Origin: Nocardioides sp.
GTDB lineage: Bacteria; Actinomycetota; Actinomycetes; Propionibacteriales; Nocardioidaceae
Assembly: GCF_047607185.1 (NCBI RefSeq)
Contig: NZ_JASGDQ010000086.1
Span: 28,478-92,477, forward strand
Length of the DNA: 64,000 bases
Direction of reading: 5' to 3'
Numbering within the stretch: position 1 is the first letter of the stretch; every line of letters starts with the position of its first letter. This document shows positions 30,115 to 56,045 of the stretch, piece by piece. The notes beneath the pieces were generated by a model, which was not told the origin of the DNA, did no database searches, and saw only the letters and a list, made by a program, of their open reading frames with translations. The position numbers and the translations under genes were made by a program.

Positions 30115-30891
30115 TCACACCGCGAAGAGCGGCGTGACGAGGGCGACCGGCGCGTCGGGGAGGCCGACCGTCTGCGGGCTGCCGACCGGGAGGAGCCCGC
30201 GCAGCCGTGCCAGCAAGGCCGACCTCACCTGGTGGACGTCCACCCCGGGGACGGTGTCCATGACCGAGCCGACCGTCTCCGGCCGGAGGTCGAGTCCCAG
30301 CTCGTCGTACCCGACCGCAAGCGCCGCCCGGACTCGGTCGACCGGGCCGATCGAGACCACGGCGCTGAGCAGATAGCCCGCCCGAACGATGCGCTGGCCG
30401 ACCCCGACCAGCTTGGCGCGACCGGCGTCGCTGACACTGAACTCGCCATCGCAGTACTCCCCCGGCACCGGACCGACCCGGGCATCGACGCCGAGGTCGC
30501 GCAGCCCGTCGGCCAGGACCTCGGAGAACGCGGCGAACCGCTCCCGGACGTGCTCTCGAGGCGCCCGGTGCGGGGCCATCAGGTGGATGACGAGCGCGCC
30601 CTCGTCGTAGATCGCGAGGTGTCCGCCGACCGGGCGCACCATCGGCACGAAGCCACGCTCCAGGAGCACCCGCCGTGCCGCCGGATAGCCTGGCCGTCGC
30701 GCGTCGCGGCCGCTGAACGCCGCCGTCGGCGGCGGCACCATCAGTTCGAGCCTGGCCTCGACCGAGCCGCTCACCAAGTCGTCGAGCCGGCGGCGGACCC
30801 AGCGCACGTCGTCCGGGCCGGCACGGGGAGGCACCAGATGTGCGACGGCCCGGCCGTGACCGAAGGCGTCGCCCCGGGGAGCGATGGTCAC
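30115..30891 (-). CDS. Lipoate-protein ligase / octanoyltransferase-like protein (LplA/LipM fold)
   Basis: VRPVGGHLAI and KLVGVGQR motifs, EYCDGEFSV; GTG start overlaps the stop of the kinase gene. Confidence 0.8.
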   Translation of the reverse strand: MTIAPRGDAFGHGRAVAHLVPPRAGPDDVRWVRRRLDDLVSGSVEARLELMVPPPTAAFSGRDARRPGYPAARRVLLERGFVPMVRPVGGHLAIYDEGALVIHLMAPHRAPREHVRERFAAFSEVLADGLRDLGVDARVGPVPGEYCDGEFSVSDAGRAKLVGVGQRIVRAGYLLSAVVSIGPVDRVRAALAVGYDELGLDLRPETVGSVMDTVPGVDVHQVRSALLARLRGLLPVGSPQTVGLPDAPVALVTPLFAV

Positions 30892-32381
30892 GAGGCTGTT
30901 CCGGTCACGGTGCGCACGGCGGTGGTCCAGCCGGCGTAGAGACCGTCTCGCCGGTCCGCGGACATCCGGGGCTCGAAGACACGGTCGGCCGCCCAGCGCT
31001 CGGCGAGATCGCCCAGCTTCCACAGACCGCCCGCGACTCCGGCGACATGAGCCACGCCGAGCGCGGTCTGCTCGAGCAGCCGGGGACGCAGCACCGGCAC
31101 GCCGAGGATGTCGGCCTGGAACTGGCAGAGCAGCTCGTTGGCGACGGCACCCCCGTCGACGCGCAGCTGCGGCACCGCGACACCGCCGGCCTGGAACGCC
31201 TCGACGACGTCCCGGGTCTGGTAGGCCAGCGACTCCAGCCCGGCGCGTACGACGTGCTCGCGACCGCTCTCGAGGGTCAGTCCCACGATCGCGGCGCTGG
31301 CCTCGCGCACCCAGTGCGGCGCGCAGATACCGGCGAAGGCCGGCACGACGTAGACCCCGTCGGTGTCGGGGACCCGGCCGGCGACGTCCTCGACGCGCTC
31401 GCCGGGGCCGAGCACGCCCAGCTTCTCGCGTAGCCACTGCAGCGTCTGCCCGCAGTGGAAGACGACGCCCTCGGCCTCGTAGTCGGTGCGGCCTTCGAGG
31501 GTCCATCCCACGCTGGCGGTCAGGCCGTCGAGGACGGCCGGCTGCCGGCCGGTGTTGGCGGTCACCACCCCGGCGGTGCCATAGGTGTTCTTGACCGTGC
31601 CGGGCGCCAGGCAGCCCTGGCCGAACATCCCGGCCATCTGGTCGCCCATCACCGCGGAGAGCGGGAACGGCGCGGTGCCGGGCAGGGCCAGGTCGCGGGG
31701 GCGGACCTCGTCGAAGTGGCCGTCGGAGGGGCGCACGTCGGGCAGCACCGACATCGGCACGCCGGTGGCGGCGCAGAGCTCCTCGTCCCAGGCCAGGTCG
31801 GCCAGCGAGAACAGCGCGGTTCGAGACGCCTCGCTCGGGTCGGTGGCGTGGCAGCGGCCGCCGGTGAGGTTCCAGATCAGCCAGCTGTCGAGGGTGCCGA
31901 AGGCGAGCTCCCCGGCCAGCGCCCGGTCGCGGGCGCCGGGCACGGTCTCGAGCAGCCAGGCCGCCTTGGCGGCGCTGAAGAAGGAGTCGTTGAAGAGGCC
32001 GGTGCGCTCGCGGAAGACCGGGTCCAGGCCCTCGGCGCGCCACCGCTCGACGATCGGGTCGGTCTGCTTCGAGAGCCACATGATCGCGTGGTGCACCGGC
32101 TCGCCGGTGGCCCGGTCCCAGAGCAGGCAGGTCTCCCGCGAGGTGGTGACTCCGGCCCCGGCGATGTCGTCGGTGGTCGCGCCCGCGTGGTCGAGCGCCT
32201 CGGCGAGCGAGTCGCGCAGCGCCCCCCACAGCTGCCAGGGGTCCAGCTCCACCCAGCCACGGTGCGGGAAGAGCGGCTCGGTGGGGCGCCGGGCCTCGGC
32301 GGCGATCTCGCCGTCGGCGCCGACCAGCACCGCCCGGGCGCTGGTCGAGCCGAGGTCCAGCGCCAGGGCGTAGCGGCTCAT
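30888..32381 (-). CDS. Glycerol-kinase-like FGGY kinase
   Basis: LDLGSTS, RET..WD, FGTLDSWLIW, ASRT, GDQ, KNTYGT, VDGG; several GlpK consensus positions are substituted. Confidence 0.88.
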   Translation of the reverse strand: MSRYALALDLGSTSARAVLVGADGEIAAEARRPTEPLFPHRGWVELDPWQLWGALRDSLAEALDHAGATTDDIAGAGVTTSRETCLLWDRATGEPVHHAIMWLSKQTDPIVERWRAEGLDPVFRERTGLFNDSFFSAAKAAWLLETVPGARDRALAGELAFGTLDSWLIWNLTGGRCHATDPSEASRTALFSLADLAWDEELCAATGVPMSVLPDVRPSDGHFDEVRPRDLALPGTAPFPLSAVMGDQMAGMFGQGCLAPGTVKNTYGTAGVVTANTGRQPAVLDGLTASVGWTLEGRTDYEAEGVVFHCGQTLQWLREKLGVLGPGERVEDVAGRVPDTDGVYVVPAFAGICAPHWVREASAAIVGLTLESGREHVVRAGLESLAYQTRDVVEAFQAGGVAVPQLRVDGGAVANELLCQFQADILGVPVLRPRLLEQTALGVAHVAGVAGGLWKLGDLAERWAADRVFEPRMSADRRDGLYAGWTTAVRTVTGTAS

Positions 32382-33991
32382 GACACGGCGACCGGCTGCG
32401 GCACGGCGAGCCGGCCGAGCCACTCGTCGTACTCCTCGACCTCGGCCGCGCAGCGCTGCTCGTCCCAGCCGAGCCGCGGCGCGAGCACGGCGAGGACGGC
32501 GTCGAGCGAGTCGCGGCCGTGGCCGGGCTCGAAGGCGAGCAGCACGCGACGGGCAAGCACGTCGGTCAGGGTACGCGCCAGCTCGTGGCGCACCGCGAAG
32601 AGCAGCTCGGCGCCGATCGCACCCGTGGGCTCGTGGACGACCTCAAGCAGCGTCGGGTCGTCATCGGCCTCCCGTACGACGTCGACGGCGCGGCCGCCGT
32701 AGAGGGCGAGCAGCCGATCCGCGGTCCGGGCCGCGAGGCCGCGGCCGAGCAGGAAGTCCCGCGAGCGACCGAGGTCACCGACGGCTCCCGGCAGCGGCAG
32801 CGAGGCGGTCACGCAGCGTGGCGCCGTGCGGCCGAGCCGCCGGAACGCGTCGTCGACGGCGTCCTCGGCCAGCTGGCGGTAGGTGGTCAGCTTGCCGCCG
32901 ACCACGGTGATCAGGCCGGGCAGCTCGGGTCCGTGGTCGTGCAGCACGTGGCTCCGCGGCACCTCCCACTCCTCGACGTCGGGGGCGTAGGGCAGCGGCC
33001 GGACGCCGGAGTAGGTGAACAGGACGTCACCGGGGGTGAGCCCCGCACCGGGCACCAGCTGGTTGACCTCGTCGAGCAGGTAGGTCATCTCGTCGACGTC
33101 GCAGCGCGCCTCGCCGGGATCCTCCTCGAACCGGCGGTCGGTGGTGCCGATCAGGTAGCGGCCCAGCCACGGGATCACCAGCACCAGCCGGCCGTCGGTC
33201 TTGGACTCGTAGTAGACGACGTCGTCCGGCGCGCCGGGGAACGGGTCGACGACGAGGTGGCTGCCCTTGGTGCCGCCGTTGAGGCGGGGCTGCGGCGGCG
33301 CGCCGCGCCGGAAGATCCGGTCGATCCAGGGTCCGGCGACGTTGAGCACGAGAGGGGCGCGGACCTCGTGCAGCTCGTCGGTGGTGGTGTCGCGGTAGCG
33401 CACGCCGACCACCCGGCCGAGCTCGAGCACCGGCTCCTCGACGCGGGCCTTGGTGCGGATCTCGGCACCGTCGCCCAGCGCGGCCAGCGCGACCTCGACG
33501 CAGAGCCGCTCGGCGTACTCGACCTGACCGTCGGTGAACACCGTCGCTCCGCTGAGCCCGTCGGTGCCGATCCCGGCGAAGCGGGCGCGGGTCTCCGCGG
33601 CCGAGAGCACCTCGTGGCGCCGGGTGCTCTTGTCGAAGGAGAGCACGTCGTAGGCGATCATGCCGACCCGGATCAGCCAGGCGGGGCGCCGGTTGTGCCG
33701 GTAGAGCGGCATGATCAGCCGCTTCGGCTTGACCAGGTGCGGCGCCAGCCGGAAGAGCCGCTCGCGCTCGCGCAGCGACTCGCGCACCAGCGCGAAGTCG
33801 CGGTGCTCGAGGTAGCGCAGCCCGCCGTGGACCAGCCGGCCCGACCAGGCCGAGACGCCGCTGCAGAGGTCGTCCTGCTCCAGCAGGAGCACGCGCAGGC
33901 CGCGCAGGGCGGCGTCGCGGGCGATGCCGAGGCCGTTGATCCCCGCTCCCACGACGATCAGGTCGTAGGGCGTGCTCGTCTCGGTCACCAT
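32378..33991 (-). CDS. FAD-dependent glycerol-3-phosphate dehydrogenase/oxidase family protein
   Basis: VVGAGING FAD motif, HGGLRYLE, NVAGPW, KGSH, GVRPL, GGKLTTYR; GGAGAG RBS before ATG 33991. Confidence 0.92.
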   Translation of the reverse strand: MVTETSTPYDLIVVGAGINGLGIARDAALRGLRVLLLEQDDLCSGVSAWSGRLVHGGLRYLEHRDFALVRESLRERERLFRLAPHLVKPKRLIMPLYRHNRRPAWLIRVGMIAYDVLSFDKSTRRHEVLSAAETRARFAGIGTDGLSGATVFTDGQVEYAERLCVEVALAALGDGAEIRTKARVEEPVLELGRVVGVRYRDTTTDELHEVRAPLVLNVAGPWIDRIFRRGAPPQPRLNGGTKGSHLVVDPFPGAPDDVVYYESKTDGRLVLVIPWLGRYLIGTTDRRFEEDPGEARCDVDEMTYLLDEVNQLVPGAGLTPGDVLFTYSGVRPLPYAPDVEEWEVPRSHVLHDHGPELPGLITVVGGKLTTYRQLAEDAVDDAFRRLGRTAPRCVTASLPLPGAVGDLGRSRDFLLGRGLAARTADRLLALYGGRAVDVVREADDDPTLLEVVHEPTGAIGAELLFAVRHELARTLTDVLARRVLLAFEPGHGRDSLDAVLAVLAPRLGWDEQRCAAEVEEYDEWLGRLAVPQPVAVS

Positions 33992-34197
33992 CGGACTCTC
34001 CTTAAGCATCAATATTCATATCATGCATCTACATGTAGTGTAAGTGGCGTCACACCCGGGCTGTCAAGGATCCGCGGCAGCGACGGGGCGGCCAGCAGGC
34101 CGCGTCGCGGCGCAATGCAGGCCGGATCGATCGCCGCTCCCTAGAATGGCCCGGCCCTCCGCACCGGGGTGGCGGCGAACCCGGAGAGGCAGGACCG

Positions 34198-35154
34198 ATG
34201 GCCGACATCGAGAATCAGCGCCTGATGATCAAGGTCGCCCGGCTCTACCACACGCACGGGATGCGGCAGACCGACATCGCCGAGCGGCTGCAGATCTCGC
34301 AGTCGCGGGTCTCCCGGCTGCTGACCCAGGCCGAGGAGGCCGCCATCGTCCGCACCGTCGTGGCCGTGCCCCGGCACGTCCACGCCGAGCTGGAGGAGCA
34401 GATCGAGCGGCTCTACGACGTCAGCGAGGTGCACGTCGTCGACGCCGTGAGCAGCCGGCAGGACGAGCTCAACCGCGACCTGGCCCATGCCATGGCGGCG
34501 CTGCTGAACGAGATCACCGCGGACACCCCGGTCATCGGGTTCACCTCGTGGAGCCAGACGCTGCGCCTCGCCATCGACGCGCTGCAGCCGATGCGCACCC
34601 ACACCGAGCGGGTGGTCGAGCTGCTCGGCGACCTCGGCCCCCCCGACCTCCAGCACGACGCCGCCCGCTCGACGCAGCGCTTCGCCACCCTCACCGGTGC
34701 GCAGCCGGTCTTCCTGCGCACCCCCGGCGTGGTCACCTCGGTGGAGATGAAGGACCTGCTGCTCAGCCGCGATCTCCATGCCCGACAGGCACTGGAGATG
34801 CTCGACTCGATCGATCTCGCCCTGGTCGGCATCGGCGCCAACACGGTGGATCCGGCGCTGAGTCCGGGCGACAACTTCTTCACCGAGGAGCAGTTCGCCG
34901 CCATGCGCGAGCGGGGCGCGGTCGGCGAGGTCTGCCTGCACTTCCTCGACGAGCACGGTGAGCCGATCGCCGACGGCCTGGACGACCTGGTCGTGGGCGT
35001 CACGATGCAGCAGCTGCGATCGGCGCGCCGGCGCTGGGCCGTCGCAGGCGGAGTGCGCAAGCACGAGGCCATCGGCGCGGCGCTGCGCGGCGGCTGGATC
35101 GACACCCTGGTCACCGACGTCGCCACCGGCGAGCACCTGGTCGCCACCGGCTGA
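34198..35154 (+). CDS. SorC/DeoR/LsrR-family sugar-phosphate-binding regulator (copy 1)
   Basis: VARLYH..GMRQTDIA..SRVSRLL HTH plus sugar-binding domain ending GWIDTLVTD; TAGAAT -10 at 34142-47. Confidence 0.93.
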   Translation: MADIENQRLMIKVARLYHTHGMRQTDIAERLQISQSRVSRLLTQAEEAAIVRTVVAVPRHVHAELEEQIERLYDVSEVHVVDAVSSRQDELNRDLAHAMAALLNEITADTPVIGFTSWSQTLRLAIDALQPMRTHTERVVELLGDLGPPDLQHDAARSTQRFATLTGAQPVFLRTPGVVTSVEMKDLLLSRDLHARQALEMLDSIDLALVGIGANTVDPALSPGDNFFTEEQFAAMRERGAVGEVCLHFLDEHGEPIADGLDDLVVGVTMQQLRSARRRWAVAGGVRKHEAIGAALRGGWIDTLVTDVATGEHLVATG

Positions 35155-35207: not shown

Positions 35208-35214
35208 CCGTGGC

Positions 35215-36942
35215 TCAGTCCGGCCTGCCGTGTCCCGCCATCCGGCGCAGATCGGGGGCGCCCAGCCGGGCCCGCTCGGCGAGCACGTCGTCGTGCAACT
35301 CCTGGGAGGCCCGCTCGGCGGCCACCCGGACCTGATAGGCCTCCACCTCCCGGGCCGTCGTCGCCGCGTCCCAGCCCAGGACCGGGCCGGCGATCTCCGC
35401 GGCGGCCCGGGCGGTCTCGATGCCGCGGTGGCCGGTCTCGACCGAGATGCGAGTGCGGCGGGTGAGCACGTCGTCGAGGTGGAGCGCCCCCTCGTGGGTG
35501 ACCGCGTAGCGGATCTCGGCGCGCAGATACTCCGGCGCGCCCGGCATCGGCTCGAGCAGGGTGGCGTCCTCGACGGCGACCACCTCGGTGAGCAGGGTGC
35601 CGTAGCGGCGCAGCAGCCGGTCGATCTGGCCGGCCGGGAGGCCCAGCTCCAGCGCGAGGGAGTCGCGGCGCTCGGGCAGGCCGGCGAATCCCGCGCCGCC
35701 GAGCAGCGGCAGCCGGTCGGTCACCGACGGGGCGAGGTCCCCGCCGAGGTCGTCGGCGCAGGCATCGACGGCGTCGCGAGCCATCACCCGATAGGTCGTG
35801 TACTTCCCGCCGGCCACCGTGACCAGGCCCGGCACCGGCCGGCTCACGGCGTGCTCGCGGGAGACCTTGGCGGTGCTGGCCTCCTCGCCGGCCGAGAGCA
35901 GCGGCCGCAGCCCGGCGTAGACGCCGAGGATGTCGTCGTAGGTCAGCGGCCTGGTCAGCACGGCATTGACCCGGTCGAGCACGTAGTCGATGTCGCGCCG
36001 GCTCGCGGAGGGGTGGGCCAGGTCGAGGTTCCAGTCGGTGTCGGTCGTGCCGACGACCCAGCGGTCGCGCCACGGGATCACGAACAGCACCGACTTCTCG
36101 GTGCGCAGGATCAGCCCCGTCTCGGAGTCGATCCGGTCGCGGGCCACCACCAGATGGACGCCCTTCGAGGCCCGGATCCGGAAGTCGGCAGGGGCCTCGG
36201 CGAGGTCGTGCAGCCGGTCGCTCCACACGCCGGTGGCGCCGATCACCACCCGGGCCCGGACCTCGCACCGCTCGCCCGTGTCGGAGTCACGGAGCACGGC
36301 ACCGGCCACCCGCTCACCCTCGCGCAGCAGCCGCACCACCTCGGTGGAGGTGCGTACGACGGCGCCCTGCGCGGCCGCGGTGCGGGCCACCGTCATGGTG
36401 TGCCGGGCGTCGTCGGTCTGGGCGTCGTAGTAGAGGATGCCGCCGGCCAGCGCCGACCTGCGCAACGACGGGCACCGCCGCAGCGCCGCGGCACGGCTCA
36501 GGTGCCGGTGCCGCGGCAGCGAGGAGCGGCCGCCGAGGGTGTCGTAGAGCAGTAGGCCGGCGCCGACGTAGGGCCGCTCCCAGCGGTGCTGGATCGGGTA
36601 GAGGAAGGGGACCGGCTCCACCAGGTGGGGGGCGATCCGGGTGAGCATCAGCTCCCGCTCGCGCAGCGCCTCGCGCACCAGCGGGAACTCCAGCTGCTCC
36701 AGGTAGCGCAGGCCGCCGTGGAAGAGCTTGCTGGAGCGCGACGAGGTGCCGCTGGCCAGGTCGCGCGCCTCGACGAGCGCGGTGCGCAGGCCGCGCGAGG
36801 CGGCGTCGAGGGCGGCGCCGGCGCCGGTCACGCCGCCGCCGACGACCAGGACGTCGAAACGGCCACCGGCGAGCTCGGCCCAGGCGGCCCGGTGCTCGGC
36901 GGGCCCGAGCCGACCAGGCGTGGGACGGGTGCTGATGGTCAT
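35215..36942 (-). CDS. glpD: Glycerol-3-phosphate dehydrogenase/oxidase (actinobacterial GlpD2-type)
   Basis: VVGGGVTG, SGTSSRSSKLFHGGLRYLE, ASKGVH, AGLRPL, GGKYTTYR. Confidence 0.9.
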   Translation of the reverse strand: MTISTRPTPGRLGPAEHRAAWAELAGGRFDVLVVGGGVTGAGAALDAASRGLRTALVEARDLASGTSSRSSKLFHGGLRYLEQLEFPLVREALRERELMLTRIAPHLVEPVPFLYPIQHRWERPYVGAGLLLYDTLGGRSSLPRHRHLSRAAALRRCPSLRRSALAGGILYYDAQTDDARHTMTVARTAAAQGAVVRTSTEVVRLLREGERVAGAVLRDSDTGERCEVRARVVIGATGVWSDRLHDLAEAPADFRIRASKGVHLVVARDRIDSETGLILRTEKSVLFVIPWRDRWVVGTTDTDWNLDLAHPSASRRDIDYVLDRVNAVLTRPLTYDDILGVYAGLRPLLSAGEEASTAKVSREHAVSRPVPGLVTVAGGKYTTYRVMARDAVDACADDLGGDLAPSVTDRLPLLGGAGFAGLPERRDSLALELGLPAGQIDRLLRRYGTLLTEVVAVEDATLLEPMPGAPEYLRAEIRYAVTHEGALHLDDVLTRRTRISVETGHRGIETARAAAEIAGPVLGWDAATTAREVEAYQVRVAAERASQELHDDVLAERARLGAPDLRRMAGHGRPD

Positions 36943-36963
36943 GGCTGCTCCTCCTGGAGGCGA

Positions 36964-37815
36964 TCAGTCCGAAGCGTGGCGGCGGGCCAGGACCAGGCCG
37001 GCCAGTTGCGGCCAGGCGGTCGTGGCCCAGGGGCCGAAGGGGGTCTCGCCGGCGCTGACGCAGGCCGTAGCAGCCTCCGGGTCGACCCAGAGGAACGAGC
37101 CGGACTGGCCGAAGTGGCCGAAGGTCGCCGGGCTGGCGGTGGGAGCGGTCCAGTGCGGGCTCTTGGTGCCCCGGATCTCCAGGCCGAGCCCCCAGTCGTT
37201 GGGGTCCTGCCGGCCGAAGCCCGGGAGGATGCCGGCCAGCCCGGGAAAGGTCGTGGTGGCGGTGGCCCGCACCAGGTGGGCCGGCAGCCGCCGCGGCGCG
37301 AGCAGCTCCCGCGCCAGCAGGGCGAGGTCGCCGACCGGTCCCTGGCAGCCGTGGGCCGGCGAGCCGTGCAACACGGTGCCGGTCATCCCCAGCGGGGTCA
37401 GCACGGTCTCGGCCAGCAACTCGGCGAAAGGCCGGCCGGCCCGGGCCGCGACCCGGTCGGCGAGCAGTTCGATGCCGCGGTTGGAGTAGATCCGCCGACG
37501 GCCCGGCGCGGCGACGATCCGGTCCTCGTCGAAGGCGACCCCGGAGGCGTGGGCCAGCAGGTGCCGGACGGTGGCCCCGGGCGGGCCGGCCGGCTCGTCG
37601 AGGTCGAGGAGGCCGGCATCGGCGGCGAGGAGGGTGGTCAGCGCGGCCAGGATCTTGGTCACCGATGCCCAGCGACATGGCGTCGTCAGGTCGCCGGCCG
37701 AGGCCACCACGCCGTCGGCGTCCAGTACGGCGACGCCGGCGGCCCCTGGCCAGGCCGTGAGCTCCTCGGCCAGGAGGCCGGCCAGCACCGGGTCAGGCTG
37801 ATTCGAGGTGACCAC
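36964..37815 (-). CDS. Serine hydrolase (beta-lactamase class C / PBP-like fold)
   Basis: ASVTK (SxxK), HLLAHASG, YSN, GHFGQSG. Start uncertain. Confidence 0.88.
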   Translation of the reverse strand: MVTSNQPDPVLAGLLAEELTAWPGAAGVAVLDADGVVASAGDLTTPCRWASVTKILAALTTLLAADAGLLDLDEPAGPPGATVRHLLAHASGVAFDEDRIVAAPGRRRIYSNRGIELLADRVAARAGRPFAELLAETVLTPLGMTGTVLHGSPAHGCQGPVGDLALLARELLAPRRLPAHLVRATATTTFPGLAGILPGFGRQDPNDWGLGLEIRGTKSPHWTAPTASPATFGHFGQSGSFLWVDPEAATACVSAGETPFGPWATTAWPQLAGLVLARRHASD

Positions 37816-41645: not shown

Positions 41646-41740
41646 GCCATCCTCACTTGGGTATTTATTCATTATTCGCATTTTCATGCTACGCGGCGTG
41701 CGCAGCAGTGACAAGAACCGCGCCGGTCGCTCTCGCGGCC

Positions 41741-42766
41741 TCAGGGTGCGGGGCTCTGAGGTGGGCTCTGAGGTGGGCCCTGCGGCGGTGGCGCCGTAGC
41801 GAGGTACGCCGCGGTGACCCGGTCGGTGACCAGCACGTCGACCCAGCCGCCGCGCAGCGCGGCCTCGATCGGCCGGTGCTTCTCGACTCCCCCGGCCACC
41901 ACGATCCGGCGCCGGGCCCGGCCGATATTGGCCAGCGTGCAGCCGACGACCAGGTCGTCCAGCGGCGTGAGGACCGCCGCGCCGCTGGCGTCCAGGAAGC
42001 GCTGGTCGAGCTGGCCGACCGCGCCGTCGGCCCGGGCCTGGGCGAGTTGGTCGTCGGTGAAGTAGCTCTCGCCCGGCTCCAGGCCGCTGTGCACCGCCGC
42101 CGGGCCGACCCCGACGAAGGCGACGTCGACCTGGTCGAGCAGGCCGAGCGCGCGTCGTACATGGGGGTCGGCCAGCACCGCGGCGCGGATCTCGGGCGTC
42201 GAGGTGACGCCCGGGGTTCGCAGGAAGACGGCGTCGGCGCCGAGCGCGCGCGCCATCGCCCGCGTCGACCGCGCGGCCGCATGCTGGAGCAGCGGCGAGC
42301 CCAGGTCGCCGATCATCTCCACGACGTACCTCGTCGTGGGCCGGCCGGCGAACCTGACCACGCCGGCCATCTCCTGCAGGGTCCGGCTCCACGAGGTGTA
42401 GCCGACGATCTCGGCGCTCAGCCCGGCCTCGCCCAGGTAGCGGGCGGCGGCACGGCCGAGCCCGGCGGCGGGGTCGACCACCGCCGGATCGAGGTCGACG
42501 ACATGGACCTCGGCAAGGTCGTAGCGGCGCTCGAGCTCCTCCTCGAGCTCGGGATCGAGCCCGTCGGGCACGGCGATGACGGTCGTGACCAGCCCCTGCC
42601 GCTCAGCCTGCTGCAGCACCCGCGAGACCCGCGCCTGCGAGATGCCGAGGCGAGCGCCGATGTCGCGCTGGCGCAGCCCGTGGACGTGGTAGAGCCGGGC
42701 GGCGGCGACCATGAGCCGGACCAGGTCGGGATCGGAAGGTCGCGGCGCCGGCGTGGTGGCTGCCAT
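41741..42766 (-). CDS. SorC/DeoR/LsrR-family regulator (copy 2)
   Basis: Same architecture as copy 1 (ARLYH, SRV, TSWSRTL, VFLRTPGV, GWVDVLVTD). Confidence 0.93.
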   Translation of the reverse strand: MAATTPAPRPSDPDLVRLMVAAARLYHVHGLRQRDIGARLGISQARVSRVLQQAERQGLVTTVIAVPDGLDPELEEELERRYDLAEVHVVDLDPAVVDPAAGLGRAAARYLGEAGLSAEIVGYTSWSRTLQEMAGVVRFAGRPTTRYVVEMIGDLGSPLLQHAAARSTRAMARALGADAVFLRTPGVTSTPEIRAAVLADPHVRRALGLLDQVDVAFVGVGPAAVHSGLEPGESYFTDDQLAQARADGAVGQLDQRFLDASGAAVLTPLDDLVVGCTLANIGRARRRIVVAGGVEKHRPIEAALRGGWVDVLVTDRVTAAYLATAPPPQGPPQSPPQSPAP

Positions 42767-42767
42767 G

Positions 42768-43568
42768 TCAGGCCACCGCCGAGGCGAGAAGCTCGTCGAT
42801 CCGGTGCAGCACCCAGGTCGGTCGCCGCCGCGCGGGCAGCGCGGCCACCATCTCCTCGGTGCTCTCCCCCGTCAGCACGAGCGCGGAGTCCAGGCCGGCG
42901 TCCACCGCCATGGCGATGTCGGTGTAGAGCCGGTCGCCCACCATCACACACTCGGCCGCGTCGAGACCGACGACCCGCAGCGCGGTCTCCAGCATCAGCG
43001 GCGACGGCTTCCCGACGTTGGCCTCGCAGCGCACGCCGGTGCTCGCCTCGATGGCCGCGATCACCGCCGCCGCGTCGGGCTCGCCGCGACCGCCCGGGAA
43101 TGGGCAGTAGGCGTCGGGGTTGGTGGCCACCAGCCGGGCCCGGCCATGCTGCCAGAGCGCGTCGAAGGCGATCTGGAGCTTGCGGTAGTCGAAGCCGCGG
43201 TCGTAGCTGGCCACGACGATGTCGATCTCCTCGGGCCGCTCGCTCAGCCGGAGGCCGGCGGCCTCGATGGCGCGGGCCAGCGGCGGCTCGCCGATCACGA
43301 ACACGGCGGCGTCCGGGGCCTCGGCGCGCAGCCAGGCGGCCATCGTCACGACCGGGTTCACGATGTGCGTCGTCGGGGTCGGCAGGCCGAGACCGGAGAG
43401 CTTCTCGGCGTACATCCGCGGGTCGCGGGTCGGGTTGTTGGACAAGAAGAGCGTCTCGCGGCCCTGCTCGCGCAGCGTGTGGACCAGCTCGTAGGCGCCC
43501 GGCAGCAGCTCGTCGCCCAGGTAGATGGTGCCGTCGAGGTCGAAGAGATAGCCCTGGTAGCCCCTCAC
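42768..43568 (-). CDS. HAD-IIA phosphatase (NagD/AraL-like)
   Basis: FDLDGT, LSNN, ATNPD, GKP, MVGDRLYTD; GTG start overlaps the kinase stop. Confidence 0.92.
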   Translation of the reverse strand: MRGYQGYLFDLDGTIYLGDELLPGAYELVHTLREQGRETLFLSNNPTRDPRMYAEKLSGLGLPTPTTHIVNPVVTMAAWLRAEAPDAAVFVIGEPPLARAIEAAGLRLSERPEEIDIVVASYDRGFDYRKLQIAFDALWQHGRARLVATNPDAYCPFPGGRGEPDAAAVIAAIEASTGVRCEANVGKPSPLMLETALRVVGLDAAECVMVGDRLYTDIAMAVDAGLDSALVLTGESTEEMVAALPARRRPTWVLHRIDELLASAVA

Positions 43569-45076
43569 GAGGTCACCTCCGCGAGCCGGGCGAACAGGGC
43601 GCGGTTGGCGGGGTAGATGTCGCGATAGACGTCGTAGAGCCGGTCGTAGGTCGCGGCGGCCGGCGCGCCGGGGTCGAACCACGCGCCCGACCCGCTCATC
43701 GCCGCGACCGCGGCGGGGATCGAGTCGTGGACGCCGACCGCGGCCGCGGCAAGGATGCCCGCGCCGAGGCAGGTGCTCTCGGGCTCGCGGACGATGTCGA
43801 CCCGGCGATGCATCACGTCGGCGATGATCTGGCACCAGACCGCGCTCCGCGCGCCGCCGCCCAGCACCACGATGTCGTCGATCGCGGTGCCCAGGGCCGC
43901 CTCCGTGCCCGAGGTGAGGAAGCGCTGCTCGAGCGCGATGCCCTCCAAGAGCGCACGGTAGACGTGCGCCTTGCCGTGGATGCCCGAGAGCCCGAGCAGC
44001 ACGCCGCGAGCGCTGTGGTCCCAATAGGGGGTGAGCGCGCCCGTCCAGTAGGGCAGCGCCAGCAGGCCCTCGGCGCCGGGCGGCAGGTTGGCCGCGGCGG
44101 TCTCCAGCACCTGCTCGGGGGTGAGGTCGAGACCGAGCACCCGGGAGTCGACACCGGAGAACTTCTCGACGAACCAGCTCAGGTTGAAGGTGCCGCCGCC
44201 GATGAAGGTCTCCAGCGTGTACGCCGCGGGGATCGCCGAGGCCAGGGTGCGGAACTCACGGCCGAAGGCGTAGCCGTCGCTGTGGGTGCCCGAGACGATG
44301 CCGGAGCCGAGGTTGAGATAGGCCCGGCCGGTGGTGGTCACCCCCGAGCCGAGCTGGGCGCACTGGCCGTCGCCGGCGCCGGCGACCACGGGAAGCCCCG
44401 CCGGCAGGCCGAGGTCACGGGCGACGTCGTCGGTGACGGTGCCGAGGATGCTGCCGGGCGGGCACAGCTCGCTGAACTGGTCGCGGCCCAGCCCGGCCTC
44501 GGCGAGGAGGCCGTCGTCGTAGTCGAAGGTGGCCATGTCGACGACGCCCAGCGGATCCGCGCTGGCCCAGGACGTCACCCACGCTCCGGTCAGCCGGTGG
44601 ACCAGGAAGCCGTGCACGTCGACGACCTTGCCGGTGCGGGCGATCGTCTCGGGTTCGTGGGCGGCGAGCCAGAGCAGCTTGTACCAGGCCGGCGTGGTGT
44701 TCGCGGGCTTGCCGGTGATCCGGTGGACCTCGTCGGTGCCGTGCTTGCGCACCTCCTCGGTGGCCCGGGTGTCGAGCCAGAGCATCGCCGGCCGCAACGG
44801 CTTGCCGGCCGGGTCGAGGCAGACGAAGGACTCCCGCTGATGGGTCAGGCAGATGGCGCGCAGCCGCGAGGTGTCGACGGTCTGCACCGCCCGGCGGATC
44901 GCCGTACAGGCCGCGGCCCACCAGTCCTCGGCGTTCTGCTCGCCCCAGCCGGGTCGCGGCTGGGCCAGCTCGAAGGCGCGGCGGTCCTGGGACTGGACCT
45001 CGCCCACCGCGTTCCACACGACGGCCTTCGCGGCCGTGGTGGAGCAGTCGACGCCGATCACGTAGTCCTCGGTCAT
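43565..45076 (-). CDS. FGGY carbohydrate kinase (xylulokinase-like)
   Basis: IGVDCSTT, HQRE, WLD, GAGDGQ, LPYWTG, LLEG, LGGG. Confidence 0.92.
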   Translation of the reverse strand: MTEDYVIGVDCSTTAAKAVVWNAVGEVQSQDRRAFELAQPRPGWGEQNAEDWWAAACTAIRRAVQTVDTSRLRAICLTHQRESFVCLDPAGKPLRPAMLWLDTRATEEVRKHGTDEVHRITGKPANTTPAWYKLLWLAAHEPETIARTGKVVDVHGFLVHRLTGAWVTSWASADPLGVVDMATFDYDDGLLAEAGLGRDQFSELCPPGSILGTVTDDVARDLGLPAGLPVVAGAGDGQCAQLGSGVTTTGRAYLNLGSGIVSGTHSDGYAFGREFRTLASAIPAAYTLETFIGGGTFNLSWFVEKFSGVDSRVLGLDLTPEQVLETAAANLPPGAEGLLALPYWTGALTPYWDHSARGVLLGLSGIHGKAHVYRALLEGIALEQRFLTSGTEAALGTAIDDIVVLGGGARSAVWCQIIADVMHRRVDIVREPESTCLGAGILAAAAVGVHDSIPAAVAAMSGSGAWFDPGAPAAATYDRLYDVYRDIYPANRALFARLAEVTS

Positions 45077-46536: not shown

Positions 46537-46572
46537 TCCTTCGGGTTCGTCAGACGAGTCGGTGACGGCTCG

Positions 46573-47658
46573 TCAGTGCGCTGCCTCGCGGGCGCGGCTG
46601 GCCCGGTCGGTGAGGACGGCGATGATGATCGCGATGCCGATGACCACGGGCTGGAGGTTCGGCGACACGTTGAGCAGCGACATCCCGTTGTTGAGCACGC
46701 CGATGATCAGCAGGCCGATGAAGGTGTTGAGCATGCTGCCCGAGCCGCCCGACAGGCTGGCGCCGCCGATGACGACGACCGCGATGACGTTGAGCAGGTC
46801 CCCGGTGCCGGCGGTCGGCTGCGCGGAGTCGAGCCGGGAGCCGACCACGCTGCCCGCGAGCGCGGCCAGCACGCCTGCCACGACGTAGACGCCGATCTTG
46901 ATCCGGGTGACGTTCAGGCCGGACAGCCGGGCCACCTCGGCGTTGCCGCCCACGGCGTACAGCGCGCGGCCGCTGGGCCGGTAGCGCAGCCAGAAGGCGG
47001 CGATGACGTAGCTGGCCACGAGCAGGAAGACGTCGAGCGGGATGCTGAGGATCTCCTTGCTGGTGATCGCGAGATACCAGTTCGGGAAGCCGTTGATCGG
47101 GTTGCCGTCGGTCAGGTAGAGCGCGAGGCCGGCAGCCGCGGACATGGTCGCCAGGGTGGCGACGAAGGGCTGGATCCGGCCGTACGTCGAGAGCACGCCG
47201 TTGACGAGGCCGACCAGCGCGCCGACCAGCAGGCCGGCCAGGACGCACAGGGTGAACGGGAGGTCGTGGGAGCGGTAGAGCCAGGCGCTGGTCATCAGCG
47301 AGAGCGCCAGCGTGGAGCCGACCGAGAGGTCGATGCCGCCGATGAGGATGACCAGGGCGGCGCCGACCGCCATGATCCCGATGTCGGCGTTCTGGCTCAC
47401 GATATTGGTGAGGTTCTGCCGGGTGAGGAAGTAGGGCGAGAGGAACGACAACACGATCATCACCACGACCAAGCCGACCAGCGGGCCGGGCAGCGCCCGG
47501 AAGATGGCCAACGCACTCGCCCGGGCGCCGTGGCCGCCGGGCTTGGCCGGCCCGGCGACGGTGTCAGTGCCGTTCTCGGTGCCGTTCTCGGTGCTCTGCG
47601 TCATGTCGATCGACCTCGTGGTGTTGCCGCCCGACGAGGCGGCCTGGTTCGTGGACAT
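46573..47658 (-). CDS. Sugar ABC transporter permease (RbsC-type)
   Basis: GGIDLSVG, PFVATL, GGNAEVARLSG, IAVVVIGGASLSGG. Confidence 0.95.
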   Translation of the reverse strand: MSTNQAASSGGNTTRSIDMTQSTENGTENGTDTVAGPAKPGGHGARASALAIFRALPGPLVGLVVVMIVLSFLSPYFLTRQNLTNIVSQNADIGIMAVGAALVILIGGIDLSVGSTLALSLMTSAWLYRSHDLPFTLCVLAGLLVGALVGLVNGVLSTYGRIQPFVATLATMSAAAGLALYLTDGNPINGFPNWYLAITSKEILSIPLDVFLLVASYVIAAFWLRYRPSGRALYAVGGNAEVARLSGLNVTRIKIGVYVVAGVLAALAGSVVGSRLDSAQPTAGTGDLLNVIAVVVIGGASLSGGSGSMLNTFIGLLIIGVLNNGMSLLNVSPNLQPVVIGIAIIIAVLTDRASRAREAAH

Positions 47659-47661
47659 CGG

Positions 47662-49224
47662 TCACCTTCCAGTGGCGGGTGTTGTGAGTCGGTCGCCGTC
47701 CACCGCGCTAGGCGGGGTCGACTCGTCGGTGGCCGCGGGAACGGCGAGGGCCATCACCCGCTGCGGCGTGGCCTCGTCGCGGCGGAGGATGCCGCGCTGG
47801 CGTCCCCCCGACATGACCAGCACGCGGTGGGAGAGCCCGAGGACCTCCTCGAGCTCGGAGGAGACGACCACGATCGCGATGCCCTGGTCCGCGAGCGAGC
47901 GCAGGAGCTCGTAGATCGCCATCTTCGCGCCGACGTCGACGCCTCGGGTGGGCTCGTCGACGATGAGCACCTTCGGGGTGTTGATCAGCCACTTGCCGAT
48001 CAGCACCTTCTGCTGGTTGCCGCCGGACATGGAGCGGACCGGCAGCGACATGTCGCCGCGGATGTCGAGGCGGGCGCGCTGCTCGGCGGCGATCCGCTTG
48101 ATCGTGCGCGGGGCGAGCACTCCGGCGGTCGTCAGGGTCGGCTCCCAGGGCAGCACCAGGTTGTCAGCGGCCGATCGCTCCAGGTGCAACCCCTGGCCCT
48201 TGCGGTCCTCCGGCACCAGCACGACCCCGGCGTCGATCGAGGAGCGCGGGCTGGTGCACGGGATGCGGTTGCCGTCGACCCGGACCTCGCCCGCGTCGGG
48301 CCGGTCCAGGCCGGCGATCGCCCGGACCACCTCGGTCCGGCCGGCACCGACCAGTCCGGCGATGCCGAGGACCTCGCCGCTGGCGACCTCGAAGTCGATG
48401 CCCTCGAAGGCGCCCTTGCGGCCCAGGCCGCGGACCGAGAGCACGGTCGTGTCGCGACTGGGTTTCGGGGCGCGGTGCTCGTAGGTGAACTCGCGGCCGA
48501 CCATGGCGTTGACCAGTTGCTCCTTGGGGACGTCGCGGTCCTGCCAGGAGGCGACCCGGGCACCGTCGCGCAGGCAGACGATCTCGTCGGAGACCTCGCG
48601 CACCTCGTCGAGCCGGTGGGAGATGTAGACGACGCCGGCGCCACGCTCGCGCAGGGCGCGGATCCGGTCGAGCACGTGGGCCGTCTCGGTCTCGCCCAGG
48701 GAGGCGGAGGGCTCGTCGAAGACGACATAGCGCGGCCGGCGGCTCAGCGCCTTGGCGATCTCGATCTCCTGCTGCACCGCCATCGAGAGCCCGCGGACCA
48801 GGCGGCGCGGATCGACGTCGACGCCGAGGGAGCCGAGCAGTTCGCGGGCGTCGCGGTTCATCTGCTCGCGGTCGATCCGGCCACGGCGGCGGGGCTGTCG
48901 GCCGAGGAAGATGTTCTCGGCGACCGAGAGGTCGGCCAGCAGCCGGATCTCCTGGTGGATCAGCACGACGCCCTCGCGCAGCGCCTCGGCGGGGCCGCCG
49001 GGGGCGTAGGGCGCGCCGTCGAGGGTCATCTGGCCGCCGTCGGGCTGGACGACGCCGGTGATCAGCGAGCTCAGCGTCGACTTCCCGGCGCCGTTCTCGC
49101 CGATCAGCCCGACGACCGTGCCAGGTGCGACGTCGAAGTCGACCGACTTCACGACGGTCACGCCGCTGTAGGACTTGACCAGGCCGCGGCAGTGCAGGCC
49201 CGGGTCCAGTGCTGGATCACTCAT
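47662..49224 (-). CDS. Sugar ABC transporter ATP-binding protein (RbsA-type, two domains)
   Basis: GENGAGKST, DEP, GLVGAG, PEDRK, MSGGNQQK, DEPTRGVDVGAK. Confidence 0.96.
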   Translation of the reverse strand: MSDPALDPGLHCRGLVKSYSGVTVVKSVDFDVAPGTVVGLIGENGAGKSTLSSLITGVVQPDGGQMTLDGAPYAPGGPAEALREGVVLIHQEIRLLADLSVAENIFLGRQPRRRGRIDREQMNRDARELLGSLGVDVDPRRLVRGLSMAVQQEIEIAKALSRRPRYVVFDEPSASLGETETAHVLDRIRALRERGAGVVYISHRLDEVREVSDEIVCLRDGARVASWQDRDVPKEQLVNAMVGREFTYEHRAPKPSRDTTVLSVRGLGRKGAFEGIDFEVASGEVLGIAGLVGAGRTEVVRAIAGLDRPDAGEVRVDGNRIPCTSPRSSIDAGVVLVPEDRKGQGLHLERSAADNLVLPWEPTLTTAGVLAPRTIKRIAAEQRARLDIRGDMSLPVRSMSGGNQQKVLIGKWLINTPKVLIVDEPTRGVDVGAKMAIYELLRSLADQGIAIVVVSSELEEVLGLSHRVLVMSGGRQRGILRRDEATPQRVMALAVPAATDESTPPSAVDGDRLTTPATGR

Positions 49225-49254
49225 GGTGCCCTCTCGGGAACGCGGGACCGGGGT

Positions 49255-49281
49255 GGGTGGCCGACCTGCCGCCGGCCACCC
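49255..49281 (-). terminator. Intercistronic stem-loop after the SBP gene
   Basis: GGGTGGCCG / CGGCCACCC 9-bp stem between SBP and ATPase genes. Confidence 0.5.
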
Positions 49282-49296
49282 AACCGGCCTGGGGTG

Positions 49297-50301
49297 TCAC
49301 TTGAAGGACTGGGCGTCCGGCCCGTAGAAGTCCTCGACCTTGTTCTCCTTGACCGTCTCCGCGTTGATCAGGACGGTGCTCTGGAGCTGTTCGGCGGGGA
49401 TGTCGTCACCCTCGCCGTTCATCAGCGCGATGGCGTTGCGCACCGCGAGCTGGCCCATCATGTAGGGCTGCTGGGCCATGGTCGCCTGGGTCAGGCCGCT
49501 GGCGACGGCGTCGAACATCGTCGGGAAGCCGTCGATGCCGACCGAGAAGATGTCCTTGTTGCTGGCCTGCGCGGCCTTGGAGGCGCCCATGGACATCGCG
49601 TCGCTCTCGCCGAACACGGCGGTCAGGTCGGGGTGAGCGGTCAGGATGTTCTGGGTCGCCTTGTAGGCCTCGGTCTCGTCCCAGTTGGCCGTCTCCTCGG
49701 CGACGACCTCGATGCCCGGGTTCTCGGCGATGGCCTTCTCACAGCCCTCGGTCCGCTGGATCTCCGCGGTGGAGCCCAGCACGCCGTGGAGGATGGCGAT
49801 CTCTCCCTGGCCACCGATCTGCTCGAACATCCAGGTGCACAGGTCGTAGGCCGCCTTCACGCTGTCGGTCGCGATATACGTCGCGAGCTCTCCCTGGCCC
49901 GACTCGGGCCGCTGGTCGACCGCGACGACCGGCACGTCGGCCTGGTTGGCGGCCTTGACGCCGGCGGCGGCCGCCGTGGAGTCCTGCGAGGTGAAGATGA
50001 GAGCGCCGACCTGCTGGGTGAGCAGGTCGTTGACCTGCTTGACCTGAGCCGAGGAGTCGTTGTTGGCCGAGGTGATCTTGACCTCGTAGCCCTGCTTCTC
50101 GGCCTCGTCCTTGATGCCGGCCACTTCGGCCACGTAGAACAACGACTTCTGATCGGCGACCGAGACACCGATGGTCTTCTTGCTGCCGCTGCTGCCGCCG
50201 CCGCCGGCGGAATCCTCCCCGCAGCCGGCCAGGGAGGTGGCGGCAAGGCCGAGGACGACCACCGCACCTGCAGCGGATAGGGCGGATGAACGATGAGCCA
50301 T
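49297..50301 (-). CDS. Sugar ABC transporter substrate-binding lipoprotein (RbsB-type)
   Basis: Lipobox LAGC, VPVVAVD, ANWD, ESDAM, GIDG, AQQP. Confidence 0.94.
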   Translation of the reverse strand: MAHRSSALSAAGAVVVLGLAATSLAGCGEDSAGGGGSSGSKKTIGVSVADQKSLFYVAEVAGIKDEAEKQGYEVKITSANNDSSAQVKQVNDLLTQQVGALIFTSQDSTAAAAGVKAANQADVPVVAVDQRPESGQGELATYIATDSVKAAYDLCTWMFEQIGGQGEIAILHGVLGSTAEIQRTEGCEKAIAENPGIEVVAEETANWDETEAYKATQNILTAHPDLTAVFGESDAMSMGASKAAQASNKDIFSVGIDGFPTMFDAVASGLTQATMAQQPYMMGQLAVRNAIALMNGEGDDIPAEQLQSTVLINAETVKENKVEDFYGPDAQSFK

Positions 50302-56029: not shown

Positions 56030-56045
56030 ACAGGAGTCATCGAAG

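Follow-up and report, generated by a model that had tools for sequence, protein, structure and literature searches.

The D-apiose transketolase route of Escherichia coli SE15 is encoded by a compact cluster (ECSF_RS02670-02715) which comprises two short-chain dehydrogenases/reductases (SDRs), a CUT2 ATP-binding cassette (ABC) importer, the kinase AplK, a SorC regulator and a transketolase split into AptA and AptB (Carter et al. 2018, via PMC13001218). We compare it here with a catabolic locus at 30115-50301 in a stretch of 64,000 nucleotides from Nocardioides sp. (assembly GCF_047607185.1, contig NZ_JASGDQ010000086.1, positions 28,478 to 92,477; the whole stretch is hereafter the window). The locus contains a block of genes for a thiamine diphosphate (ThDP)-dependent dehydrogenase E1 (alpha and beta subunits), a free lipoyl carrier, a class II aldolase and the catalytic core of an E2 acyltransferase. 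Acetoin dehydrogenase is a precedent for an E1 that cleaves a ketol instead of decarboxylating a 2-oxo acid. Besides, QncN/QncL and NapB/NapD, E1-like and E2-like proteins of tetrahydroisoquinoline antibiotic biosynthesis, reportedly use ThDP and a lipoyl group to take glycolaldehyde, a two-carbon unit, from ketose phosphates and pass it on as a glycolyl thioester. We propose, with a probability of about 0.5, that the Nocardioides genes form a single inducible pathway, by which a small, neutral sugar or sugar alcohol of apiose-like type is broken down and which would proceed via the E1/lipoyl/E2 module; its substrate is probably the same as, or close to, the ligand of the apiose-type clusters.

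What follows is inference as regards every reaction of the pathway, the nature of the substrate and which of E1 and the aldolase acts first. Uptake would rely on a lipoprotein substrate-binding protein (SBP) and its ABC importer. Two kinase/dehydrogenase pairs would then turn the substrate, or its stereoisomers, into keto-sugar phosphates: an FGGY kinase with a nicotinamide adenine dinucleotide (NAD) enzyme resembling AraM and sn-glycerol-1-phosphate dehydrogenase (G1PDH), and a GlpK-like kinase with a GlpD-like flavin adenine dinucleotide (FAD) enzyme. E1 alpha/beta, with its ThDP, would cleave the C-C bond beside the keto group and reductively acylate the free lipoyl carrier of 80 residues with a two-carbon fragment, glycolyl or, less likely, acetyl. 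The core-only E2 would move this fragment to coenzyme A (CoA), a housekeeping E3 would reoxidise the reduced carrier, and an LplA/B-like ligase would lipoylate it, so that the module would occupy the place of transketolase in the D-apiose pathway. Either the class II aldolase and a GlpD-like enzyme would make dihydroxyacetone phosphate (DHAP) or the aldolase would consume it, the remaining carbon going to glycolysis; a HAD phosphatase would remove or relocate a phosphate, and two sugar-phosphate-sensing SorC repressors would control the three promoters of the locus. That E1 is an oxidative, CoA-linked counterpart of transketolase has, in our estimation, an even chance at best and perhaps somewhat less; the principal argument is that the module replaces or flanks the apiose transketolase in one class of related loci. 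More tentative is the precise form of this idea, a lipoate-dependent “oxidative transketolase” that would cleave apulose-4-phosphate or a close analogue and release its C2 unit as glycolyl-CoA: this would make a fifth apiose-type route, of which the window would carry a larger version with an aldolase branch.

The related loci were obtained by scanning a genome collection with E1 beta, which yielded 80 loci (76-92% identity) onto which all window proteins were mapped. We call class A those with the aldolase and the E2 core, class B a type found in Hyphomicrobiales, and class C seven loci (L031, L040, L042, L043, L046, L051 and L060) of Streptosporangium, Nonomuraea, Glaciibacter, Herbiconiux and metagenome-assembled genomes (MAGs). 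Class C is devoid of aldolase and AraM, and immediately upstream of its E1a-E1b-lipoyl-E2-LplAB genes stand those for SorC, SDRs, a GlpK-like kinase and an ABC importer; in L031 (244-11600), for example, apiose-type genes are fused to E1a-E1b-lipoyl-E2core-LplAB. The kinship with the E. coli cluster extends over the whole front end: the first SDR is 52-57% identical to its class C counterparts (3 of the 7 loci) and the second 46-48% (6 of the 7), AplK is 37-39% identical to the class C kinases, SorC 33-40% and the permease about 40%. The class C kinases also have the AplK substitutions at the glycerol-pocket positions. The GlpK-like kinase of the window (GlpK2) is 34% identical to AplK, with pocket residues F135/Q246/G268/V270 where AplK has L/S/S/S. 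Neither Pfam/NCBIfam scans nor tblastn with the E. coli SE15 proteins found an SDR in the window locus; in the same tblastn search AptA had no match in the window and AptB matched E1 beta only (23%). Class C may be an undescribed fifth D-apiose route.

Across the loci, 155 of 328 positions of E1 alpha and 180 of 346 of E1 beta are invariant, and no position of either alignment separates classes A and B from class C. The SBPs of classes A and C, for their part, are about 40% identical and have a common signature (S13 F15 Y16 D89 R141 W164 D215 Q235, RbsB numbering) which differs from that of RbsB and of the E. coli/Rhizobium etli apiose binder. From these two observations we infer that E1 would act on one substrate, or on nearly identical ones, throughout the locus classes, and that the ligands imported by classes A and C would be close relatives. 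The initial annotation of this DNA had held that the locus does not match the glycerol, xylose, ribose, erythritol, apiose (transketolase route) or autoinducer-2 (AI-2) pathways. This stands for glycerol and for Lsr/AI-2, whose curated cut-offs the locus fails or whose defining genes it lacks, but the apiose transketolase route, which it had dismissed as well, turns out to be the closest known relative. Its suggestion that a branched polyol might be split into a C3 phosphate and an acyl-CoA is favoured by the presence of this E1/lipoyl/E2 module within homologues of the cluster for D-apiose, itself a branched pentose; a longer-chain polyol or a glycerol-containing compound, also put forward there, is not established.

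The host range is wide: several orders are represented, with Arthrobacter, Pseudarthrobacter, Sinomonas, Kocuria, Nocardioides, Marmoricola, Nakamurella and Cryobacterium, as well as Geodermatophilus, Kineococcus, Streptosporangium, Nonomuraea, a Nanopelagicales MAG, Acidimicrobiales and several Hyphomicrobiales. Co-conservation was counted on the 47 loci with full 10-kb flanks, 37 of which are of class A and carry E1a-E1b-lipoyl-aldolase-E2core. These 37 loci nearly always have the HAD phosphatase (35), the AraM-like enzyme (34) and the FGGY kinase (34), often GlpD2 (28), GlpK2 (27) and the LplA/B-like ligase (21), rarely the serine hydrolase (6) and GlpD1 (3). GlpD1 and the serine hydrolase are sporadic accessory genes, while GlpD2 is part of the conserved core. 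Eleven core genes make up one operon in L018, L036, L050, L052, L061, L063 and L068 among others, including Nakamurella-type loci, in the order E1a-E1b-lipoyl-GlpD2-GlpK2-aldolase-E2-LplAB-AraM-FGGY-HAD. On an Acidimicrobiales chromosome (L056) the whole set, transporter included, is one string; a Shinella plasmid and a Rubrobacter plasmid show further permutations of the gene order. Thus the proposal of the initial annotation that the 20 kb are one catabolic locus is borne out: its units are co-conserved, often fused to a single operon, and two of its promoters share an element described below. Units that respond to different known substrates and are not co-conserved were what that annotation had named as speaking against it; as to co-conservation, the 47-locus set shows the opposite.

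Class B has the order AraM-FGGY-SorC-E1a-E1b-lipoyl-aldolase-LplAB, with neither E2 core nor HAD and usually without GlpK2/GlpD2, and the Rubrobacter plasmid has E1a-E1b-lipoyl-ABC-GlpD2-GlpK2-aldolase plus a divergent Zn-dehydrogenase, without AraM and FGGY. Since the former relies on the FGGY/AraM pair only and the latter on the GlpK2/GlpD2 pair only, the two kinase/dehydrogenase pairs appear as interchangeable front ends. No Rosetta-stone fusion was found among the top 120 relatives of the carrier, aldolase and AraM-like protein, all being single-domain proteins of constant length. A search of the recurrent neighbours of the related loci for genes that might act on glycolyl-CoA brought up only a beta-keto-acid cleavage enzyme (BKACE, PF05853), and nothing decisive; this gene lies beside the core operon in 10 loci (e.g. 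L018:16964-17911) and may relate to the fate of the acyl-CoA. In one Hyphomicrobiaceae locus (L058:1290-4891), AraM-FGGY-E1 come after the genes of a DXR-like oxidoreductase (DRL_cat), a class II aldolase of FucA type and an FGGY kinase resembling rhamnulokinase; beyond them lies a second FGGY/AraM-like pair with a CUT1 ABC system. The DRL gene adjoins this locus only, and a riboflavin operon (with 3,4-dihydroxy-2-butanone-4-phosphate synthase) adjoins only L052.

The best-scoring models for both E1 subunits are those of pyruvate dehydrogenase (PDH) E1, yet both remain below the PDH equivalog or subfamily cut-offs: 322 bits against 394 (TIGR03182) for E1 alpha, 297 against 321 (NF006667) for E1 beta. 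The lipoyl carrier has its lipoyl-lysine in the motif EAEKV and belongs to a family of at least 1300 sequence clusters in public data; among the matches listed its relatives also stand alone, with 80-81 residues (94 in one case). The E2 that the initial annotation named in this unit is not a complete one but a core only, which has the DHRxxDG motif and lacks both a lipoyl and an E3-binding domain, and the aldolase gene separates it from the carrier. By Pfam/NCBIfam, the window locus has no gene for E3, acoR, acoX or butanediol dehydrogenase, and the recurrent gene families of the 80 related loci include no dedicated E3 (AcoL/Lpd), no aco-type regulator and no butanediol genes. The ligase has the K-x-x-G-x-G-Q motif and is presumably dedicated to the 80-residue carrier. 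Triads of E1 alpha/beta and a lipoyl protein of about 80 residues are also present on a plasmid of Sphingobium sp. RAC03 (L084, 7989-10245) and on pSRL1 of S. indicum B90A (L085, 8037-10220). Their E1 beta is 46-53% identical, no E2 is annotated, and the contexts are other catabolic ones, with SDRs, a cupin, an M24 peptidase and a pyrroloquinoline quinone dehydrogenase in one case and an AMP-binding enzyme in the other. Free lipoyl carriers paired with E1 may be a wider, unstudied architecture.

For the aldolase, the nearest solved relatives are the sulfofructose-1-phosphate aldolases, in which (YaSqiA numbering) His83, His180 and His208 bind Zn, Asp82 and Glu134 are catalytic, and Ser211, Asn230, Asp232 and Thr233 contact DHAP (PMC10665668). 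All these Zn ligands, catalytic residues and DHAP contacts are invariant in the window protein and its 51 orthologues. The protein passes TIGR00167 (224 bits against 216) and fails the fructose-bisphosphate (FBP) aldolase model TIGR01859 (257 against 343); the Arg that binds the 6-phosphate in FBP aldolases (Arg280, Helicobacter pylori numbering) is Ala or Glu, never Arg, in the 52 orthologues. It is thus predicted to be a competent DHAP aldolase. In the loop for the distal anion an invariant Arg stands at the Gln51 position, and Lys52 is replaced by Ala. We considered a sulfosugar pathway and rejected it, since genes for a sulfoquinovosidase, an isomerase and a sulfonate exporter are absent from the locus and these two substitutions alter the distal pocket.

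GlpK2 passes the subfamily cut-off NF000756 (543 bits against 498) and fails the equivalog TIGR01311 (514 against 590). We checked its glycerol-binding residues (R83 E84 W103 Y135 D245 Q246 F270): it forms a separate clade, with F270V in all 40 orthologues and Y135F in most. Both GlpD-like proteins fall slightly under the GlpD equivalog cut-off (NF008899, 360 bits), with 351 bits for GlpD2, a glycerol-3-phosphate (G3P) dehydrogenase homologue, and 347 for GlpD1. The FGGY kinase is closest to xylulokinase and under every equivalog cut-off. The AraM-like enzyme was modelled with a predicted local distance difference test score of 92.6; its best Foldseek match is Bacillus subtilis AraM (9H4X, template-modelling score 0.81 on the target), followed by archaeal G1P dehydrogenases. 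It is only about 20% identical to AraM, with some 90 extra residues, and scores 119 bits against the G1PDH equivalog cut-off of 413; its metal and NAD motifs are conserved. The predicted fold suggests that it would oxidise next to the phosphorylated carbon. The sequence searches of the PDB and the fold search with the AraM-like model gave no substrate identity. The annotations as glycerol kinase, G3P dehydrogenase and FBP aldolase met in related loci are probably wrong in detail.

Among solved binders, the SBP is most similar to ribose binders (161 bits), before the structural-genomics CUT2 entries 4rs3 and 4rsm (about 105-110 bits), which we take to hold threitol or xylitol. Its pocket reads S13 F15 Y16 D89 Q90 R141 W164 S190 D215 Q235 (RbsB numbering), and the ribose pocket is changed at 5 of 10 positions in every orthologue. 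The transporter is exchangeable, for in about 20 loci another CUT2 ABC system takes its place or is present as well (L002-L011, L014, L016, L026, L037, L050, L057, L059, L061, L063; e.g. L037:1558-8911). The companions of this second system are a PepD-like M20 “beta-Ala-His dipeptidase” (TIGR01893, 405 bits) and an epoxide-hydrolase-like protein (EHN plus alpha/beta hydrolase). This second uptake module hints that a conjugated form of the substrate might be used as well.

We searched 29.5-51 kb for AT-rich patches (50-nt windows, GC <=50%) and found only three, each just upstream of one of the three units, in full agreement with the initial annotation. An element of about 20 nt, CGTCACACCCG-N(2-5)-TCAAGG, occurs in the window only in the promoter regions of the SBP and of glpD2/sorC2, in the same orientation upstream of glpD-like 2 (34048-34069) and of the SBP (50396-50414). 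Its reverse complement contains TTGAC(A/G), so that it is probably a common -35/operator region. The motif WWTATTCAT, which we defined after seeing its sites, has 4 copies in the window, all inside the three patches; taken on its own as an operator, it is not significant under a local-shuffle control. Co-regulation of the units finds some support in the element of two promoters and the motif of the patches.

Another and more specific version of our model is a tetritol or tetrulose pathway (erythritol, threitol, erythrulose), where the AraM-like enzyme and FGGY kinase would give erythrulose-4-phosphate, the E1/lipoyl/E2 module glycolyl-CoA and glycolaldehyde phosphate, the aldolase with DHAP a pentulose-1,5-bisphosphate, and the HAD phosphatase pentulose-5-phosphate. 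It accommodates the presence of the aldolase in classes A and B and its absence from class C, where the predicted product of E1 would already be DHAP; the grouping of kinase, aldolase and phosphatase genes in a single operon agrees with a bisphosphate intermediate, the aldolase has an invariant Arg51 in the loop with which related enzymes bind the distal anion, and the FGGY kinase is xylulokinase-like. We nevertheless regard it as unlikely: no class-specific residue of E1 accompanies a substrate that would differ from that of class C by the hydroxymethyl branch, GlpK2 and GlpD2 would have no role, the SBP is no closer to 4rs3/4rsm than to ribose binders, and the AraM fold suggests oxidation beside the phosphate, not at the far end. 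This last feature, joined to the G3P-dehydrogenase homology of GlpD2, fits the regiochemistry of a different scheme in which both pairs would produce the same ketose-1-phosphate from epimeric polyol phosphates, the aldolase would release DHAP and a short hydroxy-aldehyde such as glycolaldehyde, and the module would oxidise this aldehyde, or a 2-oxo-acid or ketol isomer of it (e.g. hydroxypyruvate), to glycolyl-CoA. Each kinase gene indeed adjoins its dehydrogenase gene and the pairs look interchangeable; the aldolase, without the 6-phosphate-binding Arg, is always encoded within the E1-lipoyl-E2 block, which would suit the handling of a toxic aldehyde. But class C has the same E1 with no aldolase and a front end that predicts a phosphorylated ketose, an aldehyde is an unusual substrate for an E1 of this family, and the HAD phosphatase is left unexplained, so that we consider this scheme improbable too.

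A more conventional possibility is an ordinary acetoin/2,3-butanediol (AcoABC-type) or pyruvate dehydrogenase that merely lies beside glycerol and ribose/xylulose genes, the units being independent. The scores point that way at first sight, E1 being closest to PDH models, GlpK2 passing the GlpK subfamily cut-off and the SBP being most like ribose-binding proteins. On closer inspection both E1 subunits are under the PDH cut-offs and GlpK2 under its equivalog one, the glycerol pocket is changed in all 40 orthologues and the ribose pocket at half of its positions in every SBP, E2 is split and lacks its lipoyl and E3-binding domains, and the genes for E3, acoR, acoX and butanediol dehydrogenase are absent. 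The units are, moreover, co-conserved across phyla and fused in one operon, with glpD/glpK-like genes between those of the lipoyl carrier and the aldolase. This explanation is very unlikely in our opinion, and still less credible is an Lsr-like import and destruction of AI-2 (4,5-dihydroxy-2,3-pentanedione, DPD), where the FGGY kinase would phosphorylate DPD, and phospho-DPD would be converted to DHAP and acetyl-CoA by another way than LsrF/LsrG. The SorC/LsrR-like regulator, the FGGY kinase, the CUT2 importer and the possible products DHAP and acyl-CoA are all reminiscent of it. However, the equivalog scores are far from their cut-offs (LsrK 176 against 528, LsrR 97 and 80 against 486, LsrB 38 against 384), Pfam/NCBIfam found no LsrF or LsrG homologue, the closest gene-cluster relatives are apiose-type and not lsr, and 18 genes with two kinases are excessive for DPD. 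Schemes for 2-C-methylerythritol, 1-deoxy-D-xylulose 5-phosphate, AI-2, 6-deoxy-sugars and sugar acids were also drawn on paper; none uses all the conserved enzymes.

To come back to the apiose-like pathway via the E1/lipoyl/E2 module, several observations weigh against it. An AptB-like transketolase subunit is kept beside the E1 module in L031 and L051, the only two of class C to have it, so that E1 may act downstream of transketolase and not replace it. If E1 replaces transketolase on apulose-4-phosphate, the role of the aldolase is unexplained, because DHAP would already be the product. The alphaproteobacterial class B loci and the Rubrobacter plasmid have no E2 core nearby, hence CoA transfer would not be universal in cis, and the fate of glycolyl-CoA is not encoded within the locus. 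The SBP is only about 27% identical to the known apiose-binding family (E. coli ECSF_RS02695/PDB 5IBQ type), and the local-shuffle control mentioned above yields a three-way shared 7-mer in 11% of trials. Besides, no characterised orthologue was found for any protein of the locus.

The window has about 72% G+C, so that genes were called from codon-position GC, then assigned by Pfam and NCBIfam scans. This gives 18 genes in the locus, 17 on the minus strand and one on the plus strand (Table 1). The scans agree with the families named in the initial annotation, and its three minus-strand units are found again; it had missed the plus-strand SorC gene. Many adjacent genes have 4-nt overlaps, which suggests translational coupling. 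The longest open reading frame of the serine hydrolase runs 68 nt into the E2 core gene, and its true start is probably the GTG near 37812-37815; in L012 these two genes abut with an overlap of 1-2 nt. On the left the locus is flanked by FdhD, a Mo-oxidoreductase and an SRPBCC protein, on the right by an alpha/beta hydrolase and PhaC. These genes are unrelated to the locus and not conserved with it in related loci, and so the borders drawn initially are right. Databases name the locus proteins only generically, and no public sequencing run was found to hold the window sequence (best word share 0.06).

Table 1. Genes and promoter regions of the locus (window coordinates)
Feature	Position	Strand	Unit and remarks
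SBP, CUT2 lipoprotein, ribose-binding-protein-like	49297-50301	-	unit 1; lipobox LAGC
ABC transporter ATPase, two ABC domains	47662-49224	-	unit 1; Pfam/NCBIfam
ABC permease (BPD_transp_2)	46573-47658	-	unit 1; Pfam/NCBIfam
AraM/sn-glycerol-1-phosphate-dehydrogenase-like NAD/metal dehydrogenase, 485 aa	45073-46530	-	unit 1
FGGY sugar kinase	43565-45076	-	unit 1
HAD-IIA sugar-phosphate phosphatase (AraL/NagD/PGP-like)	42768-43568	-	unit 1
SorC/DeoR-type sugar-phosphate-sensing regulator 1	41741-42766	-	unit 1
ThDP-dependent dehydrogenase E1 alpha	40659-41645	-	unit 2
E1 beta	39622-40662	-	unit 2
Free-standing lipoyl carrier, 80 aa	39338-39580	-	unit 2; PF00364
Class II (Zn) DHAP-dependent aldolase	38449-39309	-	unit 2
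E2 acyltransferase catalytic core, 219 aa	37793-38452	-	unit 2; CDHRAVDG motif; PF00198
Beta-lactamase-fold serine hydrolase	36964-37860	-	unit 2; SVTK (SxxK) and YSN (YxN) motifs
GlpD-like FAD dehydrogenase 1 (GlpD1)	35215-36942	-	unit 2
SorC/DeoR-type regulator 2 (sorC2)	34198-35154	+	divergent from the GlpD2/GlpK2 unit
GlpD-like FAD dehydrogenase 2 (GlpD2)	32378-33991	-	unit 3
GlpK-like kinase (GlpK2)	30888-32381	-	unit 3
LplA/LipB-family lipoate/octanoate protein ligase-like	30115-30891	-	unit 3
AT-rich promoter region of the transporter/AraM-like/FGGY/HAD/SorC unit	50277-50472	-	two WWTATTCAT motifs and CGTCACACCCG..TCAAGG
AT-rich promoter patch upstream of E1 alpha	41620-41718	-	sigma-70-like TTGTCA-17-TAGCAT; one WWTATTCAT
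AT-rich divergent promoter patch, glpD-like 2/sorC2	33970-34068	.	one WWTATTCAT; CGTCACACCCG..TCAAGG begins inside (34048-34069)

Some neighbours of the locus in the window are worth mentioning in their own right. Directly upstream of it (50509-52946, minus strand), the gene of an alpha/beta hydrolase extends over the stop codon of that of a class I-type polyhydroxyalkanoate synthase (PhaC_N plus Abhydrolase_1), which looks like a small polyhydroxyalkanoate operon. Further on, a PucR-type regulator (53139-54464, minus strand) adjoins a row of genes (54551-59245, plus strand) for an AMP-binding enzyme, a membrane protein that matches DUF3556 over its full length (783 bits) and an FAD/NAD-binding oxidoreductase. 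On the other side (20857-25648, plus strand), there is a PknG-type Ser/Thr kinase (rubredoxin, kinase, TPR), after which come a zinc-ribbon/PP2C-like protein and one with a VWA domain.

In the full-text literature and the databases searched, we found no function assigned to the E1/lipoyl/E2 module, be it by a paper, a curated family, a structure entry or a database name. An oxidative transketolase would put the 2-oxoacid-dehydrogenase machinery to a catabolic use not described before, and one that is widespread among Actinomycetota and Hyphomicrobiales of soil and freshwater; we advance this as a conjecture, with rather less than an even chance of being right. If it is true, a function would be given to a large and widespread gene set, now annotated as “pyruvate dehydrogenase E1”, “fructose-bisphosphate aldolase”, “glycerol kinase” or “iron-containing alcohol dehydrogenase”. 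It would then follow that a lipoyl/CoA-linked cleavage can replace transketolase in bacterial sugar catabolism, and that glycolyl-CoA, or an equivalent acyl-CoA, is a natural catabolic intermediate, relevant to engineered C2 and photorespiration-bypass pathways. The locus would also offer a second example, after the LbpA proteins of sulfur oxidation, of free lipoyl carriers with their own ligases. On the other hand, the chemistry would not be categorically new, because acetoin dehydrogenase and the reported QncN/L-type glycolyl transfer are precedents.

How then does the locus stand among the known systems? By gene types alone, the erythritol pathway of Brucella and Rhizobium (EryA, EryB, EryD) resembles it: an FGGY kinase occurs there together with SorC, a CUT2 importer and a GlpD-like FAD dehydrogenase whose substrate is a polyol phosphate. 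It differs in that the locus has no tetrulose-phosphate racemase or isomerases (EryC/H/I) and possesses the E1/lipoyl/E2 module and the aldolase. In the araB-araL-araM genes of B. subtilis, too, a single sugar operon combines an FGGY kinase with an AraL-like phosphatase of HAD-IIA type and a dehydrogenase of the AraM family; the window protein is a distant and longer relative of AraM, however, AraA and AraD are absent and the other partner enzymes are not the same. QncN/QncL and NapB/NapD compare with the locus by the chemistry proposed here, and reportedly hand their unit over to an acyl carrier protein for nonribosomal peptide synthetase assembly, not to CoA in a catabolic sugar operon.

The acetoin dehydrogenase (AcoA/AcoB/AcoC/AcoL) and PDH-type complexes have in common with the window a heteromeric ThDP E1 alpha/beta, lipoyl acyl transfer and an E2 core, and some aco clusters even have a lipoate ligase or lipoyl synthase gene nearby. 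At the opposite, the E2 of the window is split into a carrier and a core of 219 residues, there is neither an E3-binding domain nor an E3 gene or aco regulator, and the block holds an aldolase gene, sits in a sugar operon and scores under the PDH E1 cut-offs. The D-apiose transketolase route has like the window an ABC importer, a SorC-family regulator, a GlpK-related FGGY kinase and one or more dehydrogenases, and both would have a two-subunit ThDP enzyme expected to take C2 from a keto-sugar phosphate, leaving a C3 phosphate. In comparison with it, the window lacks the SDR pair and AptA/AptB, has further enzymes (AraM-like, GlpD-like, a second kinase, a HAD phosphatase and a class II aldolase), and departs from it by its divergent SBP and a GlpK-like pocket unlike that of AplK. 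As the ThDP enzyme of the window, an E1 of 2-oxoacid-dehydrogenase type, is accompanied by a lipoyl carrier and an E2 core, the transfer would be oxidative and directed to CoA, instead of to an aldose acceptor as in the D-apiose route. The locus would thus have a 2-oxoacid-dehydrogenase-type complex recruited to a sugar pathway: by their defining features it is not an acetoin/PDH, Lsr, glycerol or apiose-transketolase system, and it would work in part like the first and the last of these.

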